Positions 12,488 to 30,833 of a stretch of DNA of 32,000 bases are shown one piece after another; position 1 is the first letter of the stretch; the number at the start of each line of letters is the position of its first letter. A model generated the notes under the pieces. The model was not told the DNA's origin. It was given only the letters and a program-made list of their open reading frames with translations, and searched no databases. Both the position numbers and the translations under genes were made by a program. Where the stretch lies: assembly GCF_900289195.1 (NCBI RefSeq), contig NZ_OMOH01000004.1, positions 240,001 to 272,000 on the forward strand, given 5' to 3'. Origin of the DNA: Propionibacterium ruminifibrarum. GTDB taxonomy: Bacteria; Actinomycetota; Actinomycetes; Propionibacteriales; Propionibacteriaceae.

Positions 12488-12505
12488 GGTTGCTCCTTGC
12501 TGTGT

Positions 12506-13477: not shown

Positions 13478-14571
13478 GCCGCGTCTCCTTCGTCGGGTGC
13501 GGTGGACAGCCAGTCCAGGCAGTCGGCGCGTTCGGCGCGCAGGTAGTCGCCGGGCTCGCCGATGAGCTCGTCGAAGGCCCGCTCGATCGGGGTGTCGTCG
13601 AGTTCGCGGCAGGTCCGGCGCACGTCGGCGCCGAAGTCGTCGAGTTCGGCGTCCATGGCCCTCAGCCAGGCGTCGTCGACGAGTCCGGTGTCGAGCAGGT
13701 GCCGGCGGAGCCGTTCGATCGGGTCCTTGGCGGCCCAGTCGGCGCTGGTCTCGTCGCCGCGGTAGCGGCCGGGGTCGTCGCTGGTGGTGTGGGCGCCCAT
13801 GCGGTAGGTGTAGGCCTCGACGAGCACCGGGTGTCCGGCGCGGGCCCGGTCGAGCGCCCAGCCGATGACGGCGGCGCCGGCCAGCGGGTCGTTGCCGTCC
13901 ACGCGGATACCGGGGATGCCGAAGCCGTGGGCGCGCTGGTACAGCGGCACCCGGCTCTGGCTGGTGACGGGCTCGCTGATGGCCCACTGGTTGTTGACGC
14001 AGCAGAACACGACGGGCGCGTCCTGGGCGGCGGCGAAGACGAGTGCCTCGTTGACGTCGCCCTGGCTGGAGGCGCCATCGCCGTAGAGGGCCAGCGTGGC
14101 GGGCACGGGCCCGTCGCCGAAGCGTTCCAGGTCGACACCCATGGCATAGCCGACTGCGTGCAGCGGGTGCGAGCCGATGATGATCGAGAAGGGCGCGACG
14201 CGGGTGGCCTCGCTGTCCCAGCGCGACATGCCCGCCCCGCGCCACAGGGCGAGCAGATCGGCCACACCGACGCCCATGGCCAGGGCCAGGGCCTGCTCGC
14301 GGTAGGTGGCGAAGACCATGTCGGCCGGTTCGATCACGGCGGCGATACCCGCCTGGTAGCCCTCCTGGCCGCGCAGCGGCGGCCACAGGCCGAGCTCGCC
14401 GTGGCGTTGGAGCGCCGCGCCCTCGGTGTCGAGGCGACGGCCGAGCATCATGCGCCGCAGCATCGTCACCAGTTCGGTGTCGCCGCCCCGCCAGGCGAAC
14501 CGCGGGTCCTCGACACGTCGGCCGTCGGGCGTGAGCAGTTGCACCGGCCGGGTCGGGTCGTCTGCGCCCAT
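13474..14571 (-). CDS. 2-oxoacid dehydrogenase E1 component, alpha subunit (TPP-dependent)
   Basis: ATG 14571 follows the RBS gaggagagg; the track's TTG at 14592 is less likely. TPP-binding motif LYGDGASSQGDVNEALVFAA..VVFCCVNNQWAIS. Confidence 0.9.
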   Translation of the reverse strand: MGADDPTRPVQLLTPDGRRVEDPRFAWRGGDTELVTMLRRMMLGRRLDTEGAALQRHGELGLWPPLRGQEGYQAGIAAVIEPADMVFATYREQALALAMGVGVADLLALWRGAGMSRWDSEATRVAPFSIIIGSHPLHAVGYAMGVDLERFGDGPVPATLALYGDGASSQGDVNEALVFAAAQDAPVVFCCVNNQWAISEPVTSQSRVPLYQRAHGFGIPGIRVDGNDPLAGAAVIGWALDRARAGHPVLVEAYTYRMGAHTTSDDPGRYRGDETSADWAAKDPIERLRRHLLDTGLVDDAWLRAMDAELDDFGADVRRTCRELDDTPIERAFDELIGEPGDYLRAERADCLDWLSTAPDEGDAA

Positions 14572-14675
14572 GCTGGTCCTCTCCTCGAACAAAACCTACG
14601 TTTCAGTAACCTACCGAACCGTAAAGACCGAGTTCAAGGGCCGCCGAGGACGGCCCGCTGTGAGAACCCGATGAG

Positions 14676-14875
14676 AGGTCGACTCGACGCGCGGCGTGCG
14701 CAGGGCCTATGCTGCGAGCGAGTCGATCGCGCCCATGACGATGGGCGCCAGGGAACTCCGGTGCAAATCCGGGACTGGCGCGCAGCGGTGAAGGTGACGG
14801 GGCCGGCACAGAGAACCCACTGGGGAGACCCGGGAAGGGGCCGGCCTCGGATGACCCGAGTCCGAAGACCTAGAC
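14676..14875 (+). promoter_or_regulatory. Cobalamin (B12) riboswitch
   Basis: Conserved core read directly: GCCAGGGAACTCCGGTGCAAATCCGGGACTGGCGCGCAGCGGTGAAGG ... CCACTGGGGAGACCCGGGAAGG ... GACCCGAGTCCGAAGACCT (B12-box-like). This is near block-for-block similar to the E. coli btuB leader as I recall it. The outer boundaries (possible P1 AGGTC 14676-14680 / GACCT 14866-14870) are approximate. Confidence 0.85.
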
Positions 14876-14901
14876 CCCAACCCGGTCAATCACGTCTGGA
14901 A

Positions 14902-15165
14902 CGCCGCAAGAACCACACCTCAAGCATCCAACGCAAGACCCCAGAGGAAATCCTCAGCGTGGTCAGCACCTACATTATAGGTCGCATCTTTGACCTACGA
15001 TTTTAAGCAGCTTCCTAAACTCAATCAACAACCGATTTCGTTTCAAAACAGCCAGACAACAAGTTGGGTATGACAACCCTCGATCACAGCCATCGCAAAA
15101 ACCACAACGAAGGACCACACCGAGTCACCCTCGACAACTTCTCACCACGAGAAACCTTCCAGTAG
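14902..15165 (+). mobile_element. Decayed fragments resembling the C-terminal tail of rve-type (IS3/IS481-like) transposases
   Basis: Two short + strand reading-frame pieces, RKNHTSSIQRKTPEEIL (about 14902-14955) and RKNHNEGPHRVTLDNFSPRETFQ* (ending TAG 15163-15165), resemble the ..YNh.RPH.aL...tP.E.f tail of DDE integrase-core transposases. They share the 13-mer CGCAA(G/A)AACCACA. No intact ORF is present. Confidence 0.25.
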
Positions 15166-15261
15166 CCCTCGCTACCCCCTACCACTTGACATAACCTAGA
15201 GCTAGCTTGTGATATTACAGCCGGACAGAATTATGAGATGATCTGGGTCTTTCAGCTGCGA

Positions 15262-15609
15262 TCAGATTAGCCAGGCTGTCAGACCATGAACGATGAAGGC
15301 CACTCCTGCTCCACCTACCATGCCCCATTCTTTCTTTCCAGCACCGATGATAGCATCGACAATTTGAACAAGAGCGGCCGCAATAAGCAGCGCCTTGGTT
15401 GGCCACTGGCTAGCAAAGGAAATGAATGGTAATGCTCCAACAAGAATCCCAAGGGGAATTGCGCGAGTCGCGTACATGTTCGCGAAAAACCGTTCACCCT
15501 CAACCACGTTGCGAGAGCCACTGAATGCACTCGGCCTCGCGAGCGCAAGGCAGGCGGCGATTATCGTGGACAGAGCGATCACCGCGTTGATGATTTGCAA
15601 TATTAACAT
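15262..15609 (-). CDS. Small 4-TM membrane protein (DUF4267-like)
   Basis: ATG 15609 follows aggaa; the track start at 15663 would overlap the ligase by 47 nt. The 115-aa product has four hydrophobic segments and the patterns YATRAIPLGILVG and LIAAALVQIVDAIIG, reminiscent of DUF4267 proteins. Confidence 0.5.
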   Translation of the reverse strand: MLILQIINAVIALSTIIAACLALARPSAFSGSRNVVEGERFFANMYATRAIPLGILVGALPFISFASQWPTKALLIAAALVQIVDAIIGAGKKEWGMVGGAGVAFIVHGLTAWLI

Positions 15610-15616
15610 TGGATTC

Positions 15617-17194
15617 CTACTTTCCACAAAGGCTTGTAATGCTGATAATGTTTGTTTGAGCAAAATTCAAGGATCGGACTACAGGCAGATGTGCCAGCAA
15701 AGTCTTACGGTCGATCTTTCCATTAATAGGAAGACGTGGAATGTGGTCTACTAAGTAGATTTCATCACACGCATCAATGTATCGAAAATCAGCGCTACTT
15801 AAAGCAGGTTTATCAGCTGAGGCTACAGCTTCGCGAAGCACCACAAAAGCGACTACGGATAGAGGAGATGAGGTATCCGATGACTCCAGTATGACCCCAG
15901 CCTCCTTAACGCCAGGATGAGCTTCAAACTGACGTTCGAGTTCAGAGGGGGAAATCACAGTTCCATTACGGTATCCGATATCCACCAAACGATCAATAAC
16001 GAACAAATGATCATCAGCGTCAAGATAACCAATATCACCGGTCATAAACCATCCACCCTTTGCGAATGGCTCGAGGTCAGGTCGGTTCATGTAGCAATCC
16101 ATCAGTTGTGGACCGCGAATCTCAATTTCGCCAATCGAACCAACTGGCAAAAGTTCACGTGTAACGACATCGACGACGCGCGTGTCAGTATTAGGAAGGT
16201 TCATGCCAACGGACCCATGCACAGGATTGTCAGGATCATCGACATGAGAATGGTAAGCTGTTTCAGTCTGTCCGTATCCTTGGAAAACCTTGATCCCGAA
16301 GCGTTGCTCAAGCGATGCGCTGAGCTGGGGCGCGAGGGCCTTGGACCCACACGAAAAATACTTCACAGTCTCAAGCTGCTCAGCGTCGATACTAGGATCG
16401 TTTTCCAGCAATCCAAACAGGGTTGGGATTCCATAAAAATGTGTGACTTGGTATCGTTCCAAGCGATCAGCTATTGCGCCGCTCTCCCACGCAGGATCAA
16501 TCACAAAGGATGCACCAACAGAGATAGCCGCATTCAAATGCAGCGGGTTCATGATAGGCATATTGACGAAGATCACCGATTGACCCCACATGCGATGGGC
16601 CGATGCTACCATAAGTGCATTAGCGACAACGTTCTTGTGGGTGAGTCTGACACATTTTGAAGGACCGGTAGTACCACTGGTGAAAGCCAGCACGGCGGGG
16701 TCGTCAGAGGCGGGCGAAGTCCTGATTCTCGTCAACGATTGACCTAGTCGATCTGACAATTCATTCGCTACTGCGACAAGATTAAAAGTCGTAAATCGTT
16801 GAGCGAGATCGGAAATCTTCTCACGGGTCGTCTCGTCGAGAATCAAGAAATCAGGTTGAGTCTCCTCAACAGCACGGACCAGCTCCACAGCGGGCTTGGG
16901 CGGCATAAGACCAACCATGATTGCTCCGGCGCGAAGTACCGAATAGTAGGTAATGACACCATCAAGTGTCGGGGTCCATGTGAGCCCAATCCGCTTCCAT
17001 CGCTCCCCAGAGACGAGAGGGCGAATGGCTTGTGCTAGTTTCTCCACACGTGCATTGAGTTCCTTATATGTGAGCTCATACCCTCTGTCTATGACTGCAA
17101 TAGAGTTGGGCGAGCGTGCAGCCGTGGCGCGAAGTAGATCAGGAATTGCTATTTCAGGTATCTCGATCCTTTTTGTATGTTGAGTTTGGATCAT
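15617..17194 (-). CDS. AMP-dependent synthetase/ligase (acyl- or aryl-CoA/ACP ligase, ANL superfamily)
   Basis: AMP-binding motif AFTSGTTGPSKCVRLTHKN, with GYGQTET, GDIGYLDADDHLFVIDRLVD and the C-terminal INGKIDRKTL. The product is 525 aa. Confidence 0.9.
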   Translation of the reverse strand: MIQTQHTKRIEIPEIAIPDLLRATAARSPNSIAVIDRGYELTYKELNARVEKLAQAIRPLVSGERWKRIGLTWTPTLDGVITYYSVLRAGAIMVGLMPPKPAVELVRAVEETQPDFLILDETTREKISDLAQRFTTFNLVAVANELSDRLGQSLTRIRTSPASDDPAVLAFTSGTTGPSKCVRLTHKNVVANALMVASAHRMWGQSVIFVNMPIMNPLHLNAAISVGASFVIDPAWESGAIADRLERYQVTHFYGIPTLFGLLENDPSIDAEQLETVKYFSCGSKALAPQLSASLEQRFGIKVFQGYGQTETAYHSHVDDPDNPVHGSVGMNLPNTDTRVVDVVTRELLPVGSIGEIEIRGPQLMDCYMNRPDLEPFAKGGWFMTGDIGYLDADDHLFVIDRLVDIGYRNGTVISPSELERQFEAHPGVKEAGVILESSDTSSPLSVVAFVVLREAVASADKPALSSADFRYIDACDEIYLVDHIPRLPINGKIDRKTLLAHLPVVRSLNFAQTNIISITSLCGK

Positions 17195-17219
17195 GTCAGT
17201 TCTTCCGAAGTAGGTTTAA

Positions 17220-17642
17220 TCAGCCAGATAGTGATATGGTACGGAATTGAATAGTGGGTTCATGGCCCGCGCCGCAAACGATGATGTCGTCACAAATGAC
17301 GCTCGCAAGAATCGACGCGAATCCGTGGCGAAGAATCTGCATGATCAGGACACGTGACGATGCCCCGATCAAACCGTTATCAAGATAACGTATCAAGGGA
17401 GTGAACATAAAATGACGCGACTGCAATCGAATTGCTTTTCTCGCTACAAAATTATCCATCGCAACCGAGTGAATAGTGTCACGTCCTATGAGACGACTGT
17501 TGTTGGCAGTGTTGACGATTACTGCCTGTAGGGCGAATGTATTAGAATATTGGGCAATGTCACCCTCGTCGATGGCTTGAGTTTGACGAGCATATAGTTG
17601 ACTGATTTTGAAAAACGTGTTCGCTTGTTCACTGCCGTCCAT
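17220..17642 (-). CDS. NTF2-like / SnoaL_4-like protein (copy B)
   Basis: ATG 17642 overlaps the upstream paralogue by 14 nt. The N-terminal FFKISQLYARQTQAIDEGDIAQYSNTF matches the SnoaL_4/NTF2 pattern (..l..rY....D.gD......F). The product is 140 aa. Confidence 0.6.
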   Translation of the reverse strand: MDGSEQANTFFKISQLYARQTQAIDEGDIAQYSNTFALQAVIVNTANNSRLIGRDTIHSVAMDNFVARKAIRLQSRHFMFTPLIRYLDNGLIGASSRVLIMQILRHGFASILASVICDDIIVCGAGHEPTIQFRTISLSG

Positions 17643-18042
17643 CGAACGAGATCCTCCGAGCTTGCACGGTCCAGCGACCTTTATAAACGAGTTCGTCTCG
17701 CACCACGGTCGACAATAACCTTTGCTGAGTTTCAGAACCATCGAGCATGACAACAAGAACGTATGACGTCACGCTTGCTCTCCCGTCACTGGAAGCATTG
17801 ATATGCACCCCAGACTGATAATGTCGATTCTTCAAGCCTTGTTGAGATCGCATTTCATGAGCTTTTGATGCTACGTTGAAGATTTTCTCCGCTGTCGTCA
17901 CATCCGTCGTTGGAGACACAAACTTCGCATCATCGGCGAAATCGCCAGCCCAGCCTTGGATATCACCTTCGTCAATCCGAGCAAAATGTTCGCCATAAAA
18001 CTGGAGGATAGAAAAGAACTGATTACTTAATGGGTCATTCAT
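17629..18042 (-). CDS. NTF2-like / SnoaL_4-like protein (copy A), possible polyketide cyclase or accessory subunit
   Basis: ATG 18042 (MNDPLSNQFFSILQFYGEHFARIDEGDIQGWAGDFADDAKF). The product is 137 aa with an NTF2-like pattern. It is a distant paralogue of the next gene. Confidence 0.65.
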   Translation of the reverse strand: MNDPLSNQFFSILQFYGEHFARIDEGDIQGWAGDFADDAKFVSPTTDVTTAEKIFNVASKAHEMRSQQGLKNRHYQSGVHINASSDGRASVTSYVLVVMLDGSETQQRLLSTVVRDELVYKGRWTVQARRISFDGRQ

Positions 18043-18070
18043 CGACAAATAAACCTTCCGTGCGGCGCAA

Positions 18071-19006
18071 CTAAACGGTGCCAAGCCCACGATGCAGGCT
18101 AGTACGGTTCTTCCACTTCTCCATAACAGCCAATTCGGCTAAAACATCAAAATCATCAGCGCCGCGAAGATCCGCAAAAGCGCGAGCGATATTTGCAATG
18201 TTCCGCTCATTGTCGATTTTCACGTTAGTGCTTTCTCGCTCAAATTCTTCAGCGGTTTCCCAGACATTCGCACCTGTGTTGATCCCTTGTTCGGCATAGA
18301 CAAGAATCAGCCGTAGATAATCAAGACAGTCTTGGAGCATCTCAGCCCCTCCGACAGGTCCGTGACCAGGCACAACAGTTTGGGCATCTAATCTTTGAAG
18401 TATTTCAAGAGCCTCGATAGATCCGGTGACAGAGCCCATAAGAGCAAAGGGTGTAACGTTATTCCATGCAATATCACCAGTGAAGAGAACCCTCTCTGTA
18501 GGCAACCAAACGACAAGATCACTGGCCGTATGGGCATCTTTGAACTCAAGAAATTGGACATCACCCCACGCTGTCGAAATACTGTACCCATTCGAAACCA
18601 GCTTAGTGGGAGGAGTGACCTGAACATTACCGAAGTTGATACCGGGTTGCCTGCGCACGAGGTCGTCCCCGGCAAGCACAATCAACTCCGCCGTTAACTC
18701 CGTCCCAAGAATATTGCCGTCCGAGAATATAAAGTTCCCAAAAGTATGGTCACCGTGAAAATGAGTATTAACGACGTCAATCTGGACAGCGGCGAGGGTT
18801 TCCAATGCACGCCGCAACATGAGGTTTCTTGCCTCGATTGCGACAGTATCAACGAGGAGTACTGCGCCGGCTTGGTCGAGTTGGATGATGCCAACATTGT
18901 TCTGACACCAAGAGCCAGGGAGCTGTTGGTAAGCAAAAGCGTGTTTACTCAGCCGCACTACGGGGCTATTACTTGGGAGTGCCAACATCAGTTTACAGCT
19001 CCTCAT
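18071..19006 (-). CDS. Metallo-beta-lactamase-fold enzyme, candidate ActIV-like second-ring cyclase/thioesterase
   Basis: HxHxDH motif (THFHGDHTFGN), plus later His/Asp ligand candidates (KDAHTASD, TGD, PGHGP). The start overlaps the ARO/CYC stop (ATGA 19003-19006). Its position directly after ARO/CYC mirrors actVII-actIV. Confidence 0.8.
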   Translation of the reverse strand: MRSCKLMLALPSNSPVVRLSKHAFAYQQLPGSWCQNNVGIIQLDQAGAVLLVDTVAIEARNLMLRRALETLAAVQIDVVNTHFHGDHTFGNFIFSDGNILGTELTAELIVLAGDDLVRRQPGINFGNVQVTPPTKLVSNGYSISTAWGDVQFLEFKDAHTASDLVVWLPTERVLFTGDIAWNNVTPFALMGSVTGSIEALEILQRLDAQTVVPGHGPVGGAEMLQDCLDYLRLILVYAEQGINTGANVWETAEEFERESTNVKIDNERNIANIARAFADLRGADDFDVLAELAVMEKWKNRTSLHRGLGTV

Positions 19007-19896
19007 GCTGTCAAGCGCTTAATCGCAGCCAACGTCGAGAGACTACTCTGGCTCAAGCTGGCGCTGAGCCGAGTAACTAGATCCGGTAGCGACACGTTTC
19101 CTGCACGCTCAAGCAGAGCAAGGTGCCGGACGGTTACACGAGTACCGCCCTCAGCCTCTTCGAACGTCCAAGTTCCTGCATGTCCATACACACCAGCTGG
19201 GGTCTGGATCTGCTTGAAAGCAACCCATTGATCAGGACGCGCTACCCGCACAGATTCGACCGAATGGGCTTGTTCAGCGTTACGGCCGAGCTCCATTGAG
19301 AACCGTTGCTGATTGATTCCTTGCGAATGCACTGTGACTGCACCCACGTGGTCCAAGAAGTCAGGCCACATGTTAACTTCCCAAAGAGGCATAAACACCT
19401 CGTGTACATCGGCATCGATCCAGACCTCATCTTGGCTACGGACGATATGTTCTGACAGAGAACTTCCATATGTCTCAGCAAGGGTCTTAATGTTCGCTAG
19501 TTCGACGGTGCTGTTATAATCAGTAATGGTCTGCGCTGCCCGGAGTGCATCTTCGTCAGCTGCAGCGAGAGTATGACTTAGCGTCAATTCAGTGGACTTC
19601 TCATCGATATCTCTGATTGTCCATACTCCTGTCATCTCGGTCAGGGGTGGTGCTGGTTCTAGCTGCTGGAAGGTGACATTCCGCCGGTCAGCGCTGAACT
19701 GACGCGAGGAGCGCCAAGAAACGGTCGTGTCAAGTTCACCCTTACGCGCCCAAAGTCTAAGTTCTTCGTGTGCTTCATCTCTGCGATTTCGCTCGCAAGC
19801 AACTGTAGGAGTAAAGAAGATTGGCCAGTTCTCTGCGTCACTGATAATGCGTTGAACGACGTCAGCAGGGGCATTGATGGTGCTTGAATGTTTCAT
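19003..19896 (-). CDS. Di-domain SRPBCC aromatase/cyclase (ARO/CYC)
   Basis: The 297-aa product has two START/Bet v1-like halves: N-terminal STINAPADVVQRIISDAENWPIFFTPTV and a second half with VWIDADVHEVFMPLWEVNMWPDFLDHV. This is the typical size and architecture for ARO/CYCs of KR-containing type II PKSs. Confidence 0.8.
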   Translation of the reverse strand: MKHSSTINAPADVVQRIISDAENWPIFFTPTVACERNRRDEAHEELRLWARKGELDTTVSWRSSRQFSADRRNVTFQQLEPAPPLTEMTGVWTIRDIDEKSTELTLSHTLAAADEDALRAAQTITDYNSTVELANIKTLAETYGSSLSEHIVRSQDEVWIDADVHEVFMPLWEVNMWPDFLDHVGAVTVHSQGINQQRFSMELGRNAEQAHSVESVRVARPDQWVAFKQIQTPAGVYGHAGTWTFEEAEGGTRVTVRHLALLERAGNVSLPDLVTRLSASLSQSSLSTLAAIKRLTA

Positions 19897-19917
19897 GGGG
19901 GTTCCTATTCAATGTCT

Positions 19918-20691
19918 CTAAAATCGACCTAAACCACCGCACACGTTCAGTGCTTGACCCGTGATAGCTGCTGCTTCTGGGCCAGCAAGGTAATTGACAA
20001 GCGAGGCAACCTCTGAGGGGGTGGAGTACCGACCGATGGGGATCTTGTTTTCGAACTCGCTGCGAACCTCTTCAATAGTGCGTCCAAAAATTTCAGCATG
20101 GCATCTGACAACTGTATCAGCCATAGGAGTCTCGACGTATCCAGGGCACACAGCGTTGACAGTAATGTTTCGCTTCGCATATTCAAGAGCAAGCGATCTA
20201 GTAATTCCGATCACTGCATGCTTCGAGGCATTGTAAGGTGCTGACAAGGGAATCCCTTGCTTCCCCGCAGTCGAGGCGATGTTGATGATGCGCCCATGCT
20301 CATTGTCCAGGATCCCTCCTTCGCGGAGAACAGCGCGACTCATGAAGAAAACAGAATCACAATTTGTTGTCATGATATGACGCCAAATATCCGTGGAGAG
20401 CTCATGGAAAGGCCCCCCACCTGAGGTTCCAGCATTGTTAACAAGGCAGTTAATCTTGCCACATCGAGCAACAATATCCTTGATGTACTGGTCGACATCT
20501 TTCTCGTTCGCCACATCACACACCGAACCAGTAACAGTCAACCCTTCATTTTGCCACCGTCTTTCATGCAGATTCACAGATTCTGCGCAACGCCCGCAGA
20601 ATTCAACATGCATGCCTGCTTGTGCAAGAGTCTCGACTATTGCTTCGCCAATGCCCGAAGTGCCACCACTTACCACTGCCACTTTCGTCAT
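19918..20691 (-). CDS. SDR-family polyketide ketoreductase (ActIII/FabG-like)
   Basis: VSGGTSGIGEAI (TGxxxGxG), NNAG and the S...YNASK catalytic motif. ATG 20691 lies 9 nt after aaggag and is preferred over GTG 20700. Confidence 0.9.
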   Translation of the reverse strand: MTKVAVVSGGTSGIGEAIVETLAQAGMHVEFCGRCAESVNLHERRWQNEGLTVTGSVCDVANEKDVDQYIKDIVARCGKINCLVNNAGTSGGGPFHELSTDIWRHIMTTNCDSVFFMSRAVLREGGILDNEHGRIINIASTAGKQGIPLSAPYNASKHAVIGITRSLALEYAKRNITVNAVCPGYVETPMADTVVRCHAEIFGRTIEEVRSEFENKIPIGRYSTPSEVASLVNYLAGPEAAAITGQALNVCGGLGRF

Positions 20692-20710
20692 ATACTTCAC
20701 CTCCTTGGAA

Positions 20711-20962
20711 CTAGCTAGTCAACTGGTCATTAGCGATAGAAATGAGTTCACGTGGTGTGATTAACGCGTAATTTCGCCCTTCGGGAAACTTGAAGTCATG
20801 ATTCTGTTCAAGCTTAGCTTTGATGGCAATGACGTTCAGCGAATCAAAATTCAATTTTTCAAAAGACATGTCCAGGATTGATTCATCGATCGTGAGCTCC
20901 TCATCTTCTCCGACAACGGTTTGAGTGATCTTGATCAGTTCATCGACAGTTATAGTCGTCAT
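20711..20962 (-). CDS. Acyl carrier protein
   Basis: The 83-aa product starts at ATG 20962, after the RBS aaaggaga. The phosphopantetheine attachment motif is LNFDSLNVI. Confidence 0.85.
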   Translation of the reverse strand: MTTITVDELIKITQTVVGEDEELTIDESILDMSFEKLNFDSLNVIAIKAKLEQNHDFKFPEGRNYALITPRELISIANDQLTS

Positions 20963-20991
20963 GAGATGTCTCCTTTTGATTGCAGCTACTG

Positions 20992-22188
20992 TCAACCATT
21001 GAGTCGCAAAAGTGCTGCGGAACGGTATCCTCCAGTGCCAGTCGAAAGCACTAAAGCGGTGTCTTTCTGAATTGGTCGGCCTTCGCCGTACACAAGGTTC
21101 AAATGTTCATCTGGATCCTGTCCACCGAGGCGAATAGCGAGTGGTGGGATCCATTGATTACGCAATGTTAGAGCCGCAAGAGCGACATCAACCGCTGAAG
21201 CGCCAGCAAATAGGCGGCCAAATCCGGTCTTGGGGGCCGTCGTCGGAGGCTGCTTGTCGCCGAAGATCTTAACTAAAGTCTCGCGCTCTCGAGTGTCCAC
21301 TCCGGGAACTCCCACTGCGTCGCTATAGACAACGCCAATATCAAAGGGCGTTACCCCCGATTCAGTGAACAGTCGTTCCACGACATCACGAAGAACATTT
21401 CCCGACTGCCCGCTCTGAAATCCTCGAGCGGCTCCGATCAACTCAATATCACGCTGTGCGGGCGGTGTCATACGTTCGCTCTGAAGCATCAACAATGCTC
21501 CCCCAGCCCCGGGCACGTAACCGATTGACTCTGCGCTGTAGGGAGCAAAACCCTCGGCAGCAGTTTCAGGTGCTAGTGTACTTGTGCCTGAATACATAGA
21601 TGCGATGCCAAACGGACTTCGAGTACCATCAATGGCACCAGTAATCATGAAGTCTGTTCCTGATAAAATCTCGTAGTTAGCGAGACTTAGGGCGTCAATT
21701 CCACTACAGGCCTCGGTCGCGACGGTCCCGCTCGGCCCCTTCAATTTATGGCGAACCGAGATCTGACCGGTATTGACTGAATAGAACCACGCAAATGATT
21801 GATAAGGGCTAACCGCTCCAGGCCCATTTTCACTGAGATTTGTCAGTTCCCTTTGAGCAAAAGATAAGCCACCGTAATTATTCCCCAGCTGGACACCGAT
21901 CTCGTCTCTGTGGTCCAAGACCTCACTATTATCACCGCTCAAAAGCTGATCTGACAGGGCGAGGGCGGCTTGCGTGATTGGATCCGTCTGTATCTTGATG
22001 CGTTCGGTCAGCCCGACGGCCATACGCTCTGTATCGAGATCGCCAAAGAGTATTTGCCTCCCCTCGCAGTCCTCAAGTGTTGAGAATGTTGTACGACCTT
22101 TGACGACTGCGTCCCATACTTCCTCAGTGGACGTTCCTTGGGATGTAGCGATGGCGATTTGTGTGATAAACGTTCTCCCGTTTCTCAT
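20992..22188 (-). CDS. Ketosynthase beta / chain-length factor (CLF)
   Basis: KS fold without catalytic residues. TEACSGIDA aligns to KS-alpha SAGCTSGLDA, placing Ala160 at the Cys/Gln position. The two KS His positions are absent (SDAVGVPG, GFGRLFAGAS). The start overlaps the KS-alpha stop (ATGA). Confidence 0.9.
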   Translation of the reverse strand: MRNGRTFITQIAIATSQGTSTEEVWDAVVKGRTTFSTLEDCEGRQILFGDLDTERMAVGLTERIKIQTDPITQAALALSDQLLSGDNSEVLDHRDEIGVQLGNNYGGLSFAQRELTNLSENGPGAVSPYQSFAWFYSVNTGQISVRHKLKGPSGTVATEACSGIDALSLANYEILSGTDFMITGAIDGTRSPFGIASMYSGTSTLAPETAAEGFAPYSAESIGYVPGAGGALLMLQSERMTPPAQRDIELIGAARGFQSGQSGNVLRDVVERLFTESGVTPFDIGVVYSDAVGVPGVDTRERETLVKIFGDKQPPTTAPKTGFGRLFAGASAVDVALAALTLRNQWIPPLAIRLGGQDPDEHLNLVYGEGRPIQKDTALVLSTGTGGYRSAALLRLNG

Positions 22189-23510
22189 ATTATCTCGTCT
22201 CTACGCTTAGGATTTTCAATCACTATCGCTGATTGAAATCCACCGAATCCACTTGCAGTTGACAGTGCACCGTTAATGACTGCCCGTCTTGCAGTATTAG
22301 GAACATAATCTAGATCACACCGTTCGTCGGGAATCTCATAATTAATCGTCGGAGGCACTAAGTTCTCTGCTATAGCTAATACACAAGCAATAATCTCAAT
22401 TGCACCAACAGCGCCGAGGGAGTGGCCAATGGAAGATTTAATTGAACTGATTGGAACATGCCGAGAGTGCTCGCCGAGAGCTTTTTTGAGTGCCTCAGTT
22501 TCGTGCACGTCGTTCTGCTGAGTGCTCGAACCATGAGCGTTGACGTAGTCAATCTGCTCCGGCTTGATTCCTGCCTTCAGTAGCGCTTTCGAGATAGCAT
22601 CAGCAAGTTCCGCACCTTCATTGTCTAGCCCAGTCATGTGGTAGCCGTTTGTAGTCCGCGCAAACCCGGTAATCTCGGCATATACGTGTGCACCGCGAGC
22701 GCGCGCATGTTCAAGATCCTCAAGCACTAGCGTCGCAGCACCTTCGGCAAGCACGAAACCATTTCGTTTAGCGTCAAATGGACGCGAAGCCTCCTCTGGT
22801 TTCTTGTTCGAAGGACTGGTAGCTTTGATCGCGTCAAAACTTGCGACTGTGATTGGCAACAAGGGAGCGTCCGTGCCGCCAGCAATGACGATGTGACTCT
22901 CTCCACGCTGGATCATCGCCGCGCCTTGACCGACCGCATCTAGCCCGGAGGTGCATCCAGCCGACACTATGGCGACTGGTCCGTTCACATGGTAACGGTC
23001 GGCAAGGCACGCTCCCAACGTGCTTGGCAGGAGCCCTTCAAAGAGCGCCTCGTTCTTGTCTCCAAGCGGACACCGCCAATACTTTCCCCCATCCGTGAAA
23101 TGATCATAAAGTTCAACCATACGCTGGGAAGCACCAACCGCTGACCCGTACGAGATTCCGATTCGGTCAGAAGTGCTGCATGTCTCATACCCGCTGTCAA
23201 AAGCGTCACCGAGCGCTTCATCAGTCGCTGCGACCGCCAAGCGTATACTGCGGTCAACCGCACTGAGGTCTTCGCCATCACCAAATTCCTGGATAACGAT
23301 ACCGTCATCTTCAATATTACACTCACCGGCAATTTGTGAGCGGAACGAACTAGGGTCAAATTGACTGATTCGACGCACTGCAGAACCTCCGGAAGTGATC
23401 AATGACCAGAACGCATCGCGCCCCGGTTCGCCAGGAGCGATGACACCGATCCCGGTGATGGCAACTCTTCTGACCTCAACCTGATCATTGTTTCCGAAAC
23501 CTTCCGACAT
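22185..23510 (-). CDS. Type II polyketide ketosynthase alpha
   Basis: Active-site IVSAGCTSGLDAV, with YVNAHGSST and KSSIGHSLGAVGA (Cys-His-His triad). ATG 23510 follows gagggga. The product is 441 aa. Confidence 0.95.
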   Translation of the reverse strand: MSEGFGNNDQVEVRRVAITGIGVIAPGEPGRDAFWSLITSGGSAVRRISQFDPSSFRSQIAGECNIEDDGIVIQEFGDGEDLSAVDRSIRLAVAATDEALGDAFDSGYETCSTSDRIGISYGSAVGASQRMVELYDHFTDGGKYWRCPLGDKNEALFEGLLPSTLGACLADRYHVNGPVAIVSAGCTSGLDAVGQGAAMIQRGESHIVIAGGTDAPLLPITVASFDAIKATSPSNKKPEEASRPFDAKRNGFVLAEGAATLVLEDLEHARARGAHVYAEITGFARTTNGYHMTGLDNEGAELADAISKALLKAGIKPEQIDYVNAHGSSTQQNDVHETEALKKALGEHSRHVPISSIKSSIGHSLGAVGAIEIIACVLAIAENLVPPTINYEIPDERCDLDYVPNTARRAVINGALSTASGFGGFQSAIVIENPKRRDEII

Positions 23511-23533
23511 TGTGTTTCCCCTCAAAATAATTC

Positions 23534-24235
23534 TTAATCCAGCTGAAGCTTAATTGGACACTGTACCGGAACGCTCGTTTGCGCCAGCCCTCGGGTAAAT
23601 GTATGTATTGCCCATTGCGCTCGTTCGACTGGCGTCGCTATCATTGCCATATGGGAAAGTCGACTTAGGTGTGGAAAATTCTCAGGATCCAATCCAGATA
23701 AAACGTTCTCAGCCTCGTAAAGATGCTCTTTGCCTAAGGTTGCCTCAAACGCAGAGATCTCGTTTGCTTCCGTGATGACGATAGAATTGAGTACGTCGAC
23801 TGCGAGCAGCGAGGTCATTTCATCATGACTTGAATCGAGGAGAATTTTAAGATATCTCTCTGAGATACGAAGCAACGCTTCAGCGCTTGGAACTCGCCCA
23901 ACCATTCCTGCGCTCAGCCCTGGGTACCTAACGAGCGATTCCACTGTCCGCATTGCCAAAGCTTCAAGTTGAGCATCCCAAGCCATATCACCCTCTGCGT
24001 TATGGATCTCAACTTCTGACAAAACAGTATTAATGAGTGTGTCCACAAGAGACTGTCTGTTCTTGAAATATACGTATAATGCAGCAGGACCAGTCTCAAG
24101 TTCTTGGGCAAGCGAGCGCATTGTCAGCGCATTAAAACCTCGCTCAGTGATCAGTTTCAACGCACTATCCACGATGAGCTGTCTCGTCAGGGGAGCTTTA
24201 CTGGCGCCTCCCCGTCGACCTTGCGGTTCATTCAT
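23534..24235 (-). CDS. TetR-family transcriptional regulator
   Basis: N-terminal HTH LIVDSALKLITERGFNALTMRSLAQELETGPAALYVYFKNRQSL. ATG 24235 follows the RBS gaggagcgaagg. It lies only 23 nt upstream of, and co-directional with, KS-alpha. Confidence 0.85.
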   Translation of the reverse strand: MNEPQGRRGGASKAPLTRQLIVDSALKLITERGFNALTMRSLAQELETGPAALYVYFKNRQSLVDTLINTVLSEVEIHNAEGDMAWDAQLEALAMRTVESLVRYPGLSAGMVGRVPSAEALLRISERYLKILLDSSHDEMTSLLAVDVLNSIVITEANEISAFEATLGKEHLYEAENVLSGLDPENFPHLSRLSHMAMIATPVERAQWAIHTFTRGLAQTSVPVQCPIKLQLD

Positions 24236-24251
24236 CCTTCGCTCCTCAGGT

Positions 24252-24283
24252 GTAACGAACACTGTTCGTTACGAACGATGTTC
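24252..24283 (-). promoter_or_regulatory. Tandem palindromic operator-like sites in the tetR/PKS operon leader
   Basis: GTAACGAACA-C-TGTTCGTTAC is a perfect 21-bp palindrome (24252-24272). ACGAACGATGTTC follows, giving two ACGAAC-N3-GTTC units (24257-24267 and 24273-24283) with centres 16 bp apart. The sites lie 17-48 nt upstream of the tetR ATG. A weak candidate minus-strand promoter sits just upstream (TAGTCA-17 nt-TAGGGT, about 24284-24312). Confidence 0.5.
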
Positions 24284-24399
24284 ACCCTAGCACCCCGGAC
24301 AGATGTTGACTAGAGCCTGATACTGGTAGCTGGACAGGATCGCTGAGTCCCCGACGCGGTCGTAGTACTTGTCGGCGTCGAATCTGGCTAGCCGCTACC

Positions 24400-24766
24400 A
24401 GCATCTACCCCCTTGACCTTGGCCCTGTACGTCGCGGTGGTAGCTCCGGCTCGAAGTCGGTGTACGTGATCGGAAACACGCCGCTGATATGGTCTCCGAA
24501 CTTGATCCAAGCCCTAGCTTGGTCCCAGCGCACGGAGCCAGGCAACCCTGCCACAGGTGTTGAGCCCTGGACACCGAAGCTGTCTCCCCGATCTGTCGAG
24601 CGGCTACGCGCAAAGGCCCCTAAGAGGGATGGTGGTGACGACCGACGTGCTACACATCCAGACTACGGCCGCCGAACAGGGTCTCGCACAGCACGACGGC
24701 TACGTGCTGACAACTAACCAACCAGCTTGGACTGTACAAGATTGTGAAACACCTGTCCTAGCCTGA
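24400..24766 (+). mobile_element. Degenerate DDE transposase remnant (IS4/ISAs1-like), frameshifted and truncated
   Basis: Frame pieces LRGMVVTTDVLHIQTTAAEQGLAQHDGYVLTTNQPAW (24626-24730) resemble the ..L.G.VVT.DALHTQ....yl....g.hYll.VK.NQP.L core of ISAs1-type transposases. Upstream pieces in other frames (PLDLGPVRRG.., NLIQALAWSQ) fit the preceding part. Multiple frame changes occur and there is no start. G+C is intermediate. Confidence 0.4.
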
Positions 24767-24769
24767 TAA

Positions 24770-25153
24770 TCCCGCCTCTGGATGGATGCCCTGGCGGCCG
24801 GCCCCGAGACGGCCGCGGCGCTCGGTGTGCGGGTCGGGGCCATGCGCGTCGGCCTGTTCGTCGGGCTGGGCGTGCTCATCGGCTGCCTGGTGGCGGTCAG
24901 CGGCGGCATCGGCTTCGTCGGTCTCATCGTCCCGCACGCGGCGCGCATGATGGTCGGCTCACTGCACCGGCGCATGCTGCCGATCGCCGCGCTGACCGGC
25001 GCGCTGTTCCTGCTGTGGGTCGACGTCATCTCGCGGGTCGCCGTCCGCCCGCAGGAGATCCCCATCGGCGTGGTCACCGGCGTGATCGGCGCCCCCGTCT
25101 TCCTGGTGCTCATGGGGCGGCGCCGGTACGCGTTCGGGGGTCGTGACGCATGA
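24770..25153 (+). pseudogene. 3'-terminal third of a FecCD/BtuC-family ABC permease gene (5' two-thirds missing)
   Basis: The frame opens right after TAA 24767-24769. LDALAAGPETAAALGVRVGAMR..GGIGFVGLIVPHAARMMVG...IPIGVVTGVIGAPVFLVLM is the C-terminal part of FecCD permeases, which are normally about 330-350 aa; only about 127 codons are present. The stop overlaps the ATPase start (ATGA). Confidence 0.75.
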
Positions 25154-25977
25154 AGACCAGGACCAGGAAACCGGCACGCCCCAGCCGTACCGCGCAGATT
25201 CCCGAGATCCGGCTCGAGGACGTCGCCGCCCAGGTCGAGGGCCACGTCGTCGTCCGCGGCGTCAGCCTCACGATCGGGCCGGGCACGAAACTGGCGCTGG
25301 TCGGCACGAACGGCGCCGGCAAGTCGACGCTGCTGCGCACCATCGCCGGCATCGCGGCCCCGGCGGCCGGCCGGGTGCTGCTCGACGGGCAGCCGCTGAG
25401 GGACCTCGCGCCGCGGGAACGGGCCCGCATCATCGCCTTCGTCTCCCAGGAGGAGACCCCGCCGGACGACCTGCGCCTGGGCGAGATGGTCGCCCTGGGA
25501 CGCATCCCGTACCGCAGCCCGTGGTCGATGACCACGCACGGCGAGCTGCACATCGTCCGCGAGGCGCTGTCCGCGCTCGGACTCGGCGACCGGCTGGAGA
25601 CGCCCTGCACGAACCTGTCCGGCGGGGAGCGGCGGCGCGCCATGATCGCCCGCGGCCTGGCCCAGCGCTGCCCGGTGCTCATGCTCGACGAACCGACGAA
25701 CCACCTCGACATCGCCTGGCAGCTGCGGCTGCTCGACCTGCTCGGCGCCCAGCCGACGACGGTCATCGCGGCCATCCACGACATCGACACCGTGCTGCGC
25801 CACTTCGACCTGGTGGCCGTCCTCCACGACGGACGCCTCCAGGCCTTCGGCAGGCCCACCGAGGTGCTCGACACCGGCCTCATGGGCGAGGCCTTCGCCG
25901 TCGAGGCCATGCAGATATCCCACCCGGAAACCCACCAGAGTCACCTGCTCATCAGCGGGGGAAAGGACCACCGATGA
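25150..25977 (+). CDS. ABC transporter ATP-binding protein (FepC/BtuD-like, iron-siderophore/cobalamin class)
   Basis: Walker A GTNGAGKSTLL, signature LSGGERRRAMIARGL and Walker B VLMLDEPTNHLD. The product is 275 aa. Confidence 0.9.
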   Translation: MKTRTRKPARPSRTAQIPEIRLEDVAAQVEGHVVVRGVSLTIGPGTKLALVGTNGAGKSTLLRTIAGIAAPAAGRVLLDGQPLRDLAPRERARIIAFVSQEETPPDDLRLGEMVALGRIPYRSPWSMTTHGELHIVREALSALGLGDRLETPCTNLSGGERRRAMIARGLAQRCPVLMLDEPTNHLDIAWQLRLLDLLGAQPTTVIAAIHDIDTVLRHFDLVAVLHDGRLQAFGRPTEVLDTGLMGEAFAVEAMQISHPETHQSHLLISGGKDHR

Positions 25978-27059
25978 AGATCTCCCGGCTCGCACCCGCC
26001 GGACTGCTCACCCTGGCGCTCGTCGCCGCCGGATGCGGCTCGGGCACGGACTCCGGCGCCGACGCGAACTCCGACTCCTCGTCCGCCGGCACCGTCCAGC
26101 TCACCAACTGCGGCGAGACCAAGCAGTACCCGAGCCCGACCACCCGGCTGTTCGTCAACGACGGCAACATCATCTCGATCGCCCTGGCCGCGGGGGCTGC
26201 CGACGACATCGTCGCCGTGTCGAGCATGCAGCGCGACCGGGACGTGCTGGCCCTCAAGTACGGCGCCGAGACGGTCGACGGCCTCAACCAGGTCGCCGAG
26301 AAGTACCCGACGATGGAGAACATCGTCGCCGCCTCGCCGCAGGTGGTCTTCGCCGGCTGGGGCTACGGCTTCTCCGAGGAGAAGAACCTCACCCCGGACG
26401 GGCTGAGCCAGCAGGGCATCGAGAGCTATCTGCTGTCGGAGACCTGCCGGCAGGACGACGGCAACCGCGGCACGATGGACCCCTGGGACGCCCTGACCAC
26501 CGACATCGCCAATGTGGGCGAGATGACCGGCCACGAGGAGACCGCCGAGTCGGTCGTGGCAGACATCAACGACCGGCGCCAGGCGCTGGAGCAGGCCCCG
26601 CAGGCCGACACCAGGCCCACCGCTTTCCTGTTCGACTCCAGCTCGGACACCATCTTCTCGTCCGGGTCCTTCGGCGCCCCGCAGGCCATGATGGACTCGG
26701 CCGGTGTCACCAACGCCCTCGCCGACGTCGAGGACACCTGGACCTCGGTGAGCTGGGAGCGTCTGGCCACCGCCGACCCCGACATCATCTTCTTCGTCGA
26801 CTACCCGGGCCAGAGCTACGACGAGAAGATCGAAGCGCTGCGGTCGAACGACGCGACGAAGGACCTGGCGGCGGTCAAGGAGGAGCGCTTCGTCAACCTG
26901 CCCTACGCCATGTGGACCTCGGGCCCGCTCAACATCGACGGCGCCGAATACCTGCGCGTCGCGCTCGAGCACTACGGCCTGCAGCCGGCCTCGGGCGTCC
27001 AGACCCGGCTGGACCTGTCCGAACTGGCCGACCTGCCCGGCAACGAGTGGATGAAGTAG
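25974..27059 (+). CDS. Lipoprotein substrate-binding protein of the FecB/BtuF-type ABC importer
   Basis: ATG 25974 overlaps the ATPase stop (ATGA). The signal peptide carries the lipobox LVAAGC. The 361-aa product sits in a permease-ATPase-SBP operon context. The longer 638-aa track ORF is an out-of-frame extension. Confidence 0.8.
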   Translation: MKISRLAPAGLLTLALVAAGCGSGTDSGADANSDSSSAGTVQLTNCGETKQYPSPTTRLFVNDGNIISIALAAGAADDIVAVSSMQRDRDVLALKYGAETVDGLNQVAEKYPTMENIVAASPQVVFAGWGYGFSEEKNLTPDGLSQQGIESYLLSETCRQDDGNRGTMDPWDALTTDIANVGEMTGHEETAESVVADINDRRQALEQAPQADTRPTAFLFDSSSDTIFSSGSFGAPQAMMDSAGVTNALADVEDTWTSVSWERLATADPDIIFFVDYPGQSYDEKIEALRSNDATKDLAAVKEERFVNLPYAMWTSGPLNIDGAEYLRVALEHYGLQPASGVQTRLDLSELADLPGNEWMK

Positions 27060-27086
27060 ACGCTCGGCGTGGGACGGGCGCCCGCA

Positions 27087-27145
27087 GCCATGCCCGGCAG
27101 GGCATGGCCAGCCGGCCCCCGGCGGGTGCAACCGCAGGGGGCCGG
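27087..27145. terminator. Two adjacent GC-rich hairpins between convergent genes
   Basis: GCCATGCCC-ggca-GGGCATGGC (27087-27108) and CCGGCCCCC...GGGGGCCGG (27112-27145, with an inner GCGG/CCGC extension). No clear T-tract follows. Confidence 0.4.
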
Positions 27146-27172
27146 TCGGGCTGACGCGAGGAGTCCCGCCCC

Positions 27173-28504: not shown

Positions 28505-28766
28505 GCGGGTCCTTTCGACAGAGGGGCGGCGGGCGGCCTGCCCTTTCGCACGAAAGGATCTCATACGCGCGGGCGGCATGGCGCACTGGCGGCCGGGCGC
28601 GGACGGCCGCCCGGTTCTGGTTGGGCCGCGCTCATAAAATAACCAGGGTTTTCCGGACATTCCCAGCCGACGCCGGGTCCGGGCGCACCTCGGGCCGCGG
28701 CGCACGAGACGATCGCCCCTGCGCCCGGCATCGGATCATCGGATTCACTTCAGACACGGAGACCGA

Positions 28767-30829: not shown

Positions 30830-30833
30830 AGGG

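Follow-up and report, generated by a model that had tools for sequence, protein, structure and literature searches.

Aromatic polyketide synthases (PKSs) are best known from soil Streptomyces. Type II clusters from the human microbiome, with the metamycins and wexrubicin, are reportedly described by Sugimoto et al. 2019 (Science 366:eaax9176). By a summary of that work, type II PKS clusters are widespread in oral, gut and skin microbiomes (PMC8222398). The described system closest to the locus considered here is the early actinorhodin (act) pathway of S. coelicolor (ActI, ActIII, ActVII, ActIV and ActVI-ORFA), in which ActVI-ORFA is now thought to steer unstable intermediates and not to cyclise them (PMC11315284). 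The ant cluster of Photorhabdus, which yields AQ-256, is a compact type II PKS from outside Streptomyces with ketosynthase (KS), chain-length factor (CLF), acyl carrier protein (ACP), C9 ketoreductase (KR), two cyclases and a CoA-ligase-type enzyme. In E. coli its ACP becomes active only with both the CoA ligase AntG and the phosphopantetheinyl transferase (PPTase) AntB, and without AntG octaketide shunts fall 13-fold (PMC6638757). Type II PKS clusters that are not primed with acetate always carry a ketosynthase III (KSIII) or a stand-alone adenylating enzyme (PMC4383371). Here we describe an AT-rich island in the chromosome of Propionibacterium ruminifibrarum, found in a stretch of 32,000 nucleotides (nt) (assembly GCF_900289195.1, contig NZ_OMOH01000004.1, positions 240,001 to 272,000). 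We call this whole stretch the window and use its own coordinates. The island is very probably a horizontally acquired, intact 11-gene type II PKS cassette, one of a family of such cassettes in actinobacteria.

The island resembles the early actinorhodin pathway in that act proteins are the best solved relatives of its KS-alpha, CLF and KR, and in having a di-domain aromatase/cyclase (ARO/CYC) and NTF2-like proteins of the ActVI-ORFA/Aln2 group (PMC11315284). Its metallo-beta-lactamase (MBL)-fold protein is alike by position only, standing where the second-ring cyclase is expected. It differs in sequence (identities of ~53–56% for KS-alpha and 36–41% for CLF), in an Ala for Gln161 and smaller gatekeepers in the CLF (L/A/L/F versus F/T/F/W), and in lacking the ActVI-ORF1/2/4 reductases, the ActVA/VB oxygenases and an exporter. 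Moreover, two of its proteins, an adenylate-forming ligase and a small membrane protein, are additions to the act set, and it occupies ~9 kb at 50% G+C in Propionibacterium. The genes that would place it among the benzoisochromanequinone clusters, namely an ActVI-ORF1-type C3 ketoreductase, enoyl reductases and quinone-forming oxygenases, were not found in the island. With ant it shares compactness, a home outside Streptomyces and the set of KS/CLF/ACP, C9-KR, two cyclases and a CoA-ligase-type enzyme (PMC6638757), the ant PPTase having a counterpart only in the cassette copy of Brachybacterium squillarum. Unlike ant, the island has NTF2 proteins and a TetR regulator, and it has neither an AntI-type chain-shortening lyase nor a PPTase beside the ligase. 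Its KS-alpha scores 282 bits against 6SMO_B, presumably Photorhabdus AntD, which is no better than its scores against FabF proteins. A stand-alone adenylate-forming enzyme in the operon recalls the non-acetate starter modules of R1128, daunorubicin, enterocin and the pentangular polyphenols, and a sister cluster (locus L031) adds a KSIII; unlike those modules, the cassette has no KSIII, dedicated priming ACP or acyltransferase. Like the human-microbiome clusters of Sugimoto et al. 2019, cassette copies occur in oral Arachnia-, Actinomyces- and Propionibacterium-like genomes, and the family may already be listed among those clusters, in which case it is perhaps also characterised. In the literature that we searched we met no account of a type II PKS from the genomes of Propionibacterium, Arachnia or Brachybacterium. 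The island is an orphan cluster of a known type II PKS class, outside the benzoisochromanequinone and ant sub-types, and its genomic behaviour (a recurrent neighbourhood, remnants and a persistent 45-point deficit in G+C at third codon positions, GC3) is more surprising than its chemistry.

The island spans 14872 to 24777 (9,906 bp) and has a G+C content of 50.7%, between a left flank of 70.0% and a right flank of 70.7%. Windows of 500 nt read 0.45–0.56 inside and 0.62–0.75 in the rest of the window, and the step at either edge is complete in ~100 nt. GC3 is 0.45–0.54 in the 11 island open reading frames (ORFs) against 0.91–0.98 in flank genes. An earlier note, made from the letters of this DNA, had proposed an AT-rich island of ~9.9 kb in ~70% GC DNA with a switch at third codon positions, and both proposals are borne out by a profile that is far from flat. 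The 38–48% G+C that it gave for the interior is too low as an average; only some single 100-nt windows fall to 0.39–0.42. Exact breakpoints came from alignment to the empty site of P. australiense (locus L028), which sets the edges at 14871|14872 and 24777|24778; the edges proposed earlier, 14890 and 24770, were approximate, lying 18 nt and 7 nt away. In P. australiense the site is uninterrupted: an E1 dehydrogenase gene stands on the opposite strand, followed by a forward riboswitch, a 380-aa permease, an ATPase and a substrate-binding protein (SBP). In the window, homology to L028 stops at 14871, leaving the riboswitch aptamer without its expression platform and gene, and resumes at 24778, inside the permease gene, where the remnant ORF (24782–25153) covers only positions 199–310 of the 311 in profile PF01032. 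The island has replaced 814 bp of host DNA, comprising 47 nt of leader and the first ~256 permease codons. The SBP downstream is identical (100%) to a P. ruminifibrarum protein and 93% identical to that of P. australiense, and the island ligase, too, is on deposit as a P. ruminifibrarum protein. A composition that deviates from the host and a site that is empty in a close relative mark the locus as a horizontal island, and the intact P. australiense site upholds the earlier claim of acquisition, since the locus is not present in all close relatives. The insertion most likely inactivated a riboswitch-controlled B12-type importer. As a side observation, a transcript starting upstream of the orphaned riboswitch now enters the 3′ end of the island antisense.

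None of the classical marks of mobility was found. There is no tRNA gene in the whole window, there are no terminal repeats at the island ends, and Pfam shows no integrase or transposase domain in the island. The loss of 814 bp from the host, with no repeats, integrase or tRNA to be seen, leads us to infer that the insertion went by illegitimate recombination. Other cassette copies, unlike the window island, are flanked by insertion sequence (IS) genes. A plasmid or phage carrier was considered and rejected: PLSDB plasmids held no KS-alpha above 60% identity, so that the cassette is not plasmid-borne there, and IMG/VR viral contigs gave no match with the CLF or the 115-aa membrane protein as query. 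At the left end, homology to other cassettes starts at 15235–15238; at the right end, a promoter region common to relatives extends to ~24371, and the other 406 nt are unique. The two unique end spacers showed no similarity to related loci, the window flanks or PLSDB, and their six frames, read by eye, held no convincing ORF, and they were accordingly rejected as IS relics or host filler.

The 11 ORFs all lie on the minus strand with ATG starts and no internal stops (Table 1). Gaps between them are 7–29 nt, and three pairs overlap (ATGA at 22185–22188 and 19003–19006; 14 nt at 17629–17642), so the packed arrangement described earlier, overlaps included, stands in full. The motifs read from the translations in the earlier note are likewise all present (VSAGCTSG, HGSST, GHSLGA, FDSL, GGTSGIG, NNAG, YNASK, HFHGDH and TSGTTGPSK), and Pfam agrees with its domain calls, giving in order TetR_N/TetR_C, two ketoacyl-synthase proteins, PP-binding, adh_short/KR, two Polyketide_cyc stretches in one protein, Lactamase_B, two SnoaL_4 and AMP-binding. 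Its list of absences also holds, as no Pfam domain of a PPTase, oxygenase, methyl- or glycosyltransferase or transporter was found in the island; nor was one of an acyltransferase, enoyl reductase or alpha/beta-hydrolase, and there is a single short-chain dehydrogenase/reductase (SDR). Calling the operon complete went too far, given that the island is without a PPTase while the B. squillarum copy has an adjacent one. Because neither a PPTase nor a malonyl transferase is encoded, activity of the island depends on host enzymes outside the window. A single transcript, started from a promoter upstream of tetR, almost certainly covers all 11 genes, and TetR could plausibly control the whole operon through the palindrome found there, in a promoter region conserved in loci L010, L011 and L044. 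Promoter-like sites numbered 15 against 8.6 ± 2.8 in shuffles, none tied to function, and terminator-like sites were not above the shuffled expectation. All 11 genes are under purifying selection, with a ratio of non-synonymous to synonymous substitution rates (dN/dS) of 0.085–0.20 against L010 at dS 0.7–0.9, values that reflect selection across the cassette family and not in the P. ruminifibrarum strain.

Table 1. Features of the island and of the adjoining host DNA, in window coordinates.
Feature	Position	Strand	Evidence or remark
Cobalamin riboswitch aptamer, host DNA	14750–14871	+	Rfam RF00174, 67.1 bits, E=1e-14; ends exactly at left junction
Left-end non-coding spacer	14872–15261		G+C ~0.48
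115-aa protein, four predicted membrane helices, last gene	15262–15609	-	Hydropathy; dN/dS 0.20
Adenylate-forming (AMP-binding) ligase, 525 aa	15617–17194	-	TSGTTGPSK; PF00501 E=7.6e-64; SPF68353.1 / WP_119715510.1
NTF2-like (SnoaL_4) protein b, 140 aa	17220–17642	-	PF13577; PDB 6VW4, 6P77, 5BKA, 6P7L (Aln2)
NTF2-like (SnoaL_4) protein a, 137 aa	17629–18042	-	PF13577 E=3.3e-11; PDB 5BKA, 6P7L (Aln2)
MBL-fold protein, 311 aa	18071–19006	-	HFHGDH; PF00753 E=1.2e-16
Di-domain SRPBCC ARO/CYC, 297 aa	19003–19896	-	PF03364 + PF10604, two stretches
SDR ketoreductase, actinorhodin C9-KR type, 257 aa	19918–20691	-	adh_short E=6.6e-58
ACP, 83 aa	20711–20962	-	FDSL serine motif; PF00550; D-S-L kept in all copies
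CLF (KS-beta), 398 aa	20992–22188	-	1TQY_B match; Ala at Cys position
KS-alpha, 441 aa	22185–23510	-	Cys186 and two His motifs; ATGA-coupled to CLF
TetR-family regulator, 233 aa, first operon gene	23534–24235	-	PF00440 + PF02909; kept here in 6/7 cassette contexts
Perfect 8-1-8 palindrome AACGAACAGTGTTCGTT	24254–24270		19 nt upstream of tetR ATG; candidate TetR operator
Right-end non-coding segment	24271–24777		Unique part G+C ~0.6
3′ remnant of FecCD/BtuC-type permease gene, host DNA	24778–25153	+	Last ~123 of 380 codons
ABC ATPase, intact, host DNA	25150–25977	+	PF00005
SBP, intact, host DNA	25974–27059	+	PF01497

The island carries the gene set by which type II PKSs are recognised, with a KS-alpha holding the catalytic triad, a coupled CLF without Cys, a discrete ACP and an SRPBCC aromatase/cyclase. 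The two ketosynthase-like proteins were placed relative to FabF by bit scores and nearest relatives. KS-alpha scores 414.9 bits against the actinorhodin KS 1TQY_A, at most 295.5 against any FabF and 281.7 against 6SMO_B ('PKS_KS domain-containing protein'); the CLF scores 211.5 bits against the actinorhodin CLF 1TQY_B and at most 89 against any FabF. Both are thus of actinorhodin-type PKS, not fatty acid synthase (FAS), affinity as judged by these scores, and the check proposed in the earlier note, whether they group with FabF, went in favour of a PKS. An origin in primary-metabolism FAS II was rejected on the CLF, ARO/CYC and C9-KR matches together with the gaps in bit score to FabF. The triad motifs of KS-alpha, VSAGC(186)TSG, HGSST and GHSLGA, are kept in 7/7 copies, and its nearest relatives outside the cassette family, at 50–56% identity, are Streptomyces and Amycolatopsis proteins, several of them named at source 'minimal PKS ketosynthase (KS/KS alpha)'. 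The KR scores 245 bits against ActKR (1X7G/2RH4) and 244 bits against 3SJU ('Keto reductase'). The ARO/CYC, which scores 121.7 bits against BexL (4XRW) and 108 bits against StfQ (4XRT), is of the di-domain type of reducing systems. Taking act matches and BexL-like ARO/CYC together, the compact type II PKS with act-like early logic proposed earlier is confirmed.

To compare the CLF with 1TQY_B we aligned the two residue by residue, with a numbering offset of 8 that was checked on F109, T112, F116, Q161, W194 and G195, numbered as in the act CLF (PMC4383371). Ala160 ('TEACSG') replaces the actinorhodin Gln161, the residue for malonyl-ACP decarboxylation in acetate priming, and does so in 7/7 family members. 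The gatekeepers L108, A111, L115, F193 and G194, against act F, T, F, W and G, are also kept in 7/7. The statement in the earlier note that the CLF lacks catalytic residues was therefore true as far as it went, the missing canonical Gln having been overlooked. The smaller gate residues suggest a cavity not below octaketide-synthase size, and the chain is probably at least C16. A search among 1.84 billion cluster representatives shows that the CLF family is a single cluster, its nearest outside relative (P0242, locus L031) being 41% identical.

Among the accessory proteins, the MBL-fold protein is found at one and the same place in all cassette copies, as it is in the sister cluster L031, and is 40% identical to MBL proteins from plasmid regions of Streptomyces in which a KS and a ligase also occur; it may be a second-ring cyclase or a hydrolase. 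The reading of the SnoaL_4 pair in the earlier note has to be revised, as these proteins are closest to NTF2 proteins of the ActVI-ORFA/Aln2 type and not to cyclases. Their solved relatives 5BKA, 6P7L, 6VW4 and 6P77 we take to be the ActVI-ORFA/Caci_6494/Aln2 set of non-canonical NTF2 proteins. The ligase is read by NCBIfam as a malonyl-CoA synthase (193 bits). The 115-aa membrane protein, which has no Pfam match above threshold, is kept in all cassette copies at 57–77% identity with 50 invariant columns. Homologues of it (47% identity) also occur in the high-G+C contigs L046–L050, where other cassette proteins were not detected, and because these stand without the other proteins, the membrane-protein family is not restricted to the cassette.

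The sister cluster (L031, Logan SRR12063319) is collinear with the cassette and runs KS, CLF, ACP, KR, ARO/CYC, MBL, NTF2, NTF2, second MBL, ligase, KSIII, TetR and an MFS transporter. The shared genes are all homologous to cassette genes at 31–53% identity; the second MBL is small, tetR is divergently placed, and G+C is 63% throughout. We prefer the ligase as supplier of the starter because of the ligase and KSIII module of L031 and the rule for non-acetate-primed clusters given above (PMC4383371). A CLF with Ala at the act Gln161 position in all copies is a further hint in this direction. That it supplies a non-acetate starter is a tentative assignment, to which we would give somewhat less than an even chance. 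In the pathway as we picture it, KS-alpha/CLF and ACP would assemble a poly-beta-keto chain, the actinorhodin-type KR would reduce it at C9, and the BexL-type di-domain ARO/CYC would close and aromatise the first ring (C7–C12). The MBL-fold protein would close the second ring or off-load the chain, and the two ActVI-ORFA/Aln2-like proteins would steer reactive intermediates. The ligase would most likely supply the non-acetate starter, the alternative being an AntG-like role in ACP loading, and the four-helix membrane protein would be an accessory, possibly for export or immunity. This enzyme order, the product and expression in P. ruminifibrarum are all inferred. We expect the product to be a small aromatic polyketide of two or three rings, reduced at C9 and resembling an anthrone/anthraquinone or a naphthoate, that serves as a pigment or antibiotic.

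The relatives of KS-alpha form a tight set at 72–88% identity, after which identity falls to ~55% with Streptomyces KS-alpha. The eleven-gene order is the same in the contexts of this tight set, and the family spans three actinobacterial orders: Propionibacteriales, Actinomycetales and Micrococcales. In B. squillarum (L002) the cassette has a G+C of 0.63 in a flank of 0.72, with the PPTase two genes past the ligase and then an IS30-type transposase. L003–L006 (cassette 0.59, flank ~0.57–0.64) have transposase genes on both sides, and their flank genes cluster at at least 90% with Arachnia propionica or 'Propionibacterium sp.'. L032 and L041, from human oral metagenomes, have an Actinomyces-like flank (cassette 0.58, flank 0.61–0.67), L007 is a metagenome-assembled genome (cassette 0.66, flank 0.72), and L010 and L011 are short contigs with a few hundred nt of flank each (cassette 0.53, flank ~0.63–0.65). 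An oral Propionibacterium sp. also has the cassette (L035, L044), the human oral copies coming from PRJEB6997, and IS elements adjoin several copies. More distant or fragmentary cassette-like loci were seen in two BNJT01 metagenome contigs of ~59% G+C (L045, L051), the former with broken partial matches to all 11 proteins, so that it is either pseudogenised or a noisy assembly. A scan of GTDB genomes with the single KS-alpha protein returned distant KSs only, its peptide patterns being too specific. What circulates in the rumen, the human mouth and fermented food, in actinobacteria that are anaerobic or host-associated, is a compact, self-regulated PKS of 9 kb. A cassette of this size can be synthesised and expressed, which makes its product directly testable; the compound might matter to the ecology of the mouth or rumen as a pigment or an antibiotic. 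Among oral species, Arachnia rubra has a red pigment (PMC8638593), and caries-free children with dental black stain showed an enrichment of A. rubra and Propionibacteriaceae (PMC12775816).

All AT-rich copies found lie in Propionibacterium genomes of 70–72% G+C and in the same 5-kb neighbourhood. L035, a 100-kb contig reached through a member of the L010 ligase cluster, and the shorter L036–L038, some of them human oral, have flanks 78–90% identical to those of the window. The flank genes in common with the window are those of PPi-dependent phosphoenolpyruvate (PEP) carboxykinase, GATase, CrgA, E2, E1-beta, E1-alpha, permease, ATPase and SBP. In these contigs, as in L044, the AT-rich cassette stands just downstream of the SBP stop; in the former its orientation is the same as in the window, the permease is intact, and the site lies ~2.3 kb from the right junction of the window island, or ~3.1 kb in the empty-site operon. 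L011, the closest copy, shows a third type of junction. It starts with 84 nt of E1-alpha (codons ~16–43; identity 88% with the window, 92% with P. australiense), followed by an IS481-like transposase fragment, read by eye, and then tetR. A scan of JGI/ENA metagenomes with an alignment of the membrane protein yielded L044, a full cassette with both flanks, and L043 (3544–4400), L039, L040 and L042. These four are deletion derivatives in a human-oral Propionibacterium sp. that keep, beside the SBP gene, only the membrane-protein gene and the ligase 3′ end, ~9 kb having been lost relative to L044. Loss of the cassette therefore does occur, as such cut-down remnants in related genomes show. A piece of the SBP gene (codons ~40–56, 49–51 nt, 85–90% identical) stands at the tetR-side edge of the insert in the oral Propionibacterium copies L010 (12–62) and L044 (733–781) and may be the scar of an integration event. 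Spacers around the cassette core are wholly different between copies. Three diverged AT-rich copies at different junctions in one ~5-kb neighbourhood were unexpected, as was the lack of any G+C amelioration in them; for three independent hits within ~5 kb of a ~3-Mb genome we estimate a chance of roughly 3e-6. Derivation of the window layout from that of the oral species by tandem duplication and deletions, Campbell-type integration or homology-facilitated illegitimate recombination was rejected, as the shared spacers or orientation that these routes predict were not seen. With exact breakpoints, an empty site, remnants and three junctions, the locus offers a clean system for the placement, retention and compositional shaping of foreign DNA in high-G+C genomes.

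Along a KS+CLF tree rooted with L031, GC3 is 0.81 in L007, 0.77 in L002, 0.65–0.69 in the Arachnia- and Actinomyces-hosted copies and 0.49–0.50 in the window, L011 and L010. Because it falls stepwise, the AT-rich state is derived inside an ancestrally G+C-rich actinobacterial family. Import from a low-GC donor, as the earlier note had it, is therefore not established: the family is actinobacterial, the AT-rich copies are all in 70–72% G+C Propionibacterium, and no genome of ~50% G+C carrying the cassette was found. Divergence of the cassette is similar to that of its surroundings in some measures. Nucleotide identity of the window to L011 is 86–88% in the cassette and 88–92% in the flanks, that to L035 is 80% and 78–90%, and dN is ~0.10 in the cassette against ~0.12 in the flanks. 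The dS of the cassette, at 0.64–0.88, is about twice that of the flanks (0.22–0.49). Third-position changes on the window lineage were polarised by parsimony, with L011 as sister and L010 as outgroup for the cassette, and P. australiense as sister and L035 as outgroup for the flanks. In the cassette, A/T to G/C changes occurred at 0.147 per A/T site and G/C to A/T changes at 0.192 per G/C site (51 against 67 changes); in host flank genes the rates were 0.467 and 0.037, a ratio of 12.6. In the cassette the two kinds of change are balanced, and over no substantial stretch of its recent past has it evolved under the host regime. The lack of G+C amelioration fits a recent arrival and agrees with the empty site of P. 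australiense, and the shared neighbourhood then needs explaining. We see two accounts of it: long presence of the cassette at this place, with rearrangement and loss, or movement among related species guided by flanking homology.

Several observations weigh against an acquired, ligase-primed cassette as set out here. The best solved relatives of the ligase are malonyl-CoA synthetase and 4-coumarate-CoA ligase, at only ~155 bits, and do not decide its substrate. The cassette family has no KSIII, and the island encodes neither PPTase nor malonyl transferase. Diverse CLF-like representatives read Q 18, A 8–10 and S 7 times at the Gln position. CLFs without Gln are a minority but not unique, and because they are not rare, the missing Gln alone says little for non-acetate priming; the position is variable, and its loss is therefore a common, not a defining, feature of CLFs. 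Moreover, illegitimate recombination is argued from absent features and leaves the three diverged copies in one neighbourhood unexplained. The points on the ligase would suit an AntG-like auxiliary for ACP loading or activation, with an acetate-primed chain leading to a DMAC/aloesaponarin- or AQ-256-like anthraquinone. AntG does act beside a PPTase in Photorhabdus (PMC6638757), the B. squillarum copy places a PPTase two genes past its ligase, and both the solved structures and NCBIfam point the ligase towards malonyl-CoA, in an island that has no malonyl transferase. We nonetheless regard this role as rather doubtful, since the island has no AntI-type lyase, its CLF lacks the Gln thought to make the acetate primer, and L031 pairs the ligase with KSIII in a classic starter module. 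Moreover, KS-alpha prefers the act KS (415 bits) to 6SMO_B, our presumed AntD (282 bits). The island might also be silent or non-functional recent cargo, codon-mismatched, possibly silenced as AT-rich foreign DNA and decaying. Its GC3 of 0.49 against at least 0.93 in the host, the missing PPTase, the remnants that record loss in related genomes and an insertion that destroyed a transporter operon, and so was neither neat nor neutral, would all agree with this. Against decay, the 11 ORFs are intact, lengths, starts, couplings and catalytic motifs are conserved, and dN/dS is 0.085–0.20, though this is a family-wide and not a strain-level measure; on balance we think silent cargo unlikely.

A different view of the same locus would make the cassette no recent import from a ~50% G+C organism but an old accessory resident of its neighbourhood in a clade of host-associated Propionibacterium, reshuffled and lost locally, which stays AT-rich by escaping the force that enriches the core genome in G+C (for instance recombination-linked biased gene conversion or codon selection). 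The three junctions within ~5 kb, which chance would so rarely produce, the remnants, the tracking of host divergence in nucleotide identity and dN, the monotonic fall of GC3 along the cassette tree and the balanced third-position changes beside a 12.6-fold AT-to-GC bias in the flanks all speak for long residence. Against it, P. australiense shows a clean empty site and an intact permease although the oral species is the more distant of the two from the window; the end spacers of the copies are unrelated to one another, and dS in the cassette is roughly double that in the flanks. To keep a GC3 deficit of 45 points for so long would be far beyond what is known for accessory genes, and copies could also come to share a neighbourhood if transfer among relatives were repeated and homology assisted their integration. 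Long residence is thus a possibility that we hold with considerable doubt. A stronger form of it strikes us as improbable. In this form a long-term resident of one neighbourhood (E1 dehydrogenase, B12 riboswitch and ABC importer) in rumen and human-oral Propionibacterium would have kept GC3 ~0.5 against ~0.95 over a synonymous divergence of 0.45–0.9, exempt from the force that maintains G+C, and its product would be a ligase-primed aromatic polyketide of uncharacterised kind, a pigment or antibiotic of the oral and foregut microbiota of mammals. If true, the cassette would be a natural experiment on whether high G+C is kept by recombination-linked gene conversion rather than by mutation. An artefact, finally, with DNA of some ~50% G+C organism brought in by chimeric assembly or by contamination, is so improbable as to be negligible. 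The abrupt compositional step and edges without mobility genes or repeats are what it would produce, yet both junctions fall inside one host operon with exactly 814 bp missing between them, and the island sits in a 356-kb NCBI contig. Furthermore, window positions 12185–28891 (16.7 kb), which span both junctions, are matched at 100% identity by an independent Logan assembly of ERR1938110, and in other samples, too, contigs of related Propionibacterium have the cassette in this neighbourhood. An acquired, intact cassette remains the reading that we prefer.

Three further features of the window lie outside the island. Between 5000 and 6500 there is a mild dip in G+C to 0.62–0.65, with long ORFs on both strands that have no Pfam match. 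At 28767–30635, in DNA of normal G+C, a 622-aa protein joins an NhaA-type Na+/H+ antiporter to a thioredoxin-like domain. Its gene is missing at the syntenic P. australiense site, where 28575–30834 corresponds to L028 12704–12772, a second indel between the two species. Lastly, an ORF of 1149 aa at 552–4001 (GC3 0.94) had no Pfam match in the window scan and is identified as a PPi-dependent PEP carboxykinase because its L035 ortholog is recorded with PF26300 (PEPCK_PPi_lobe_2).

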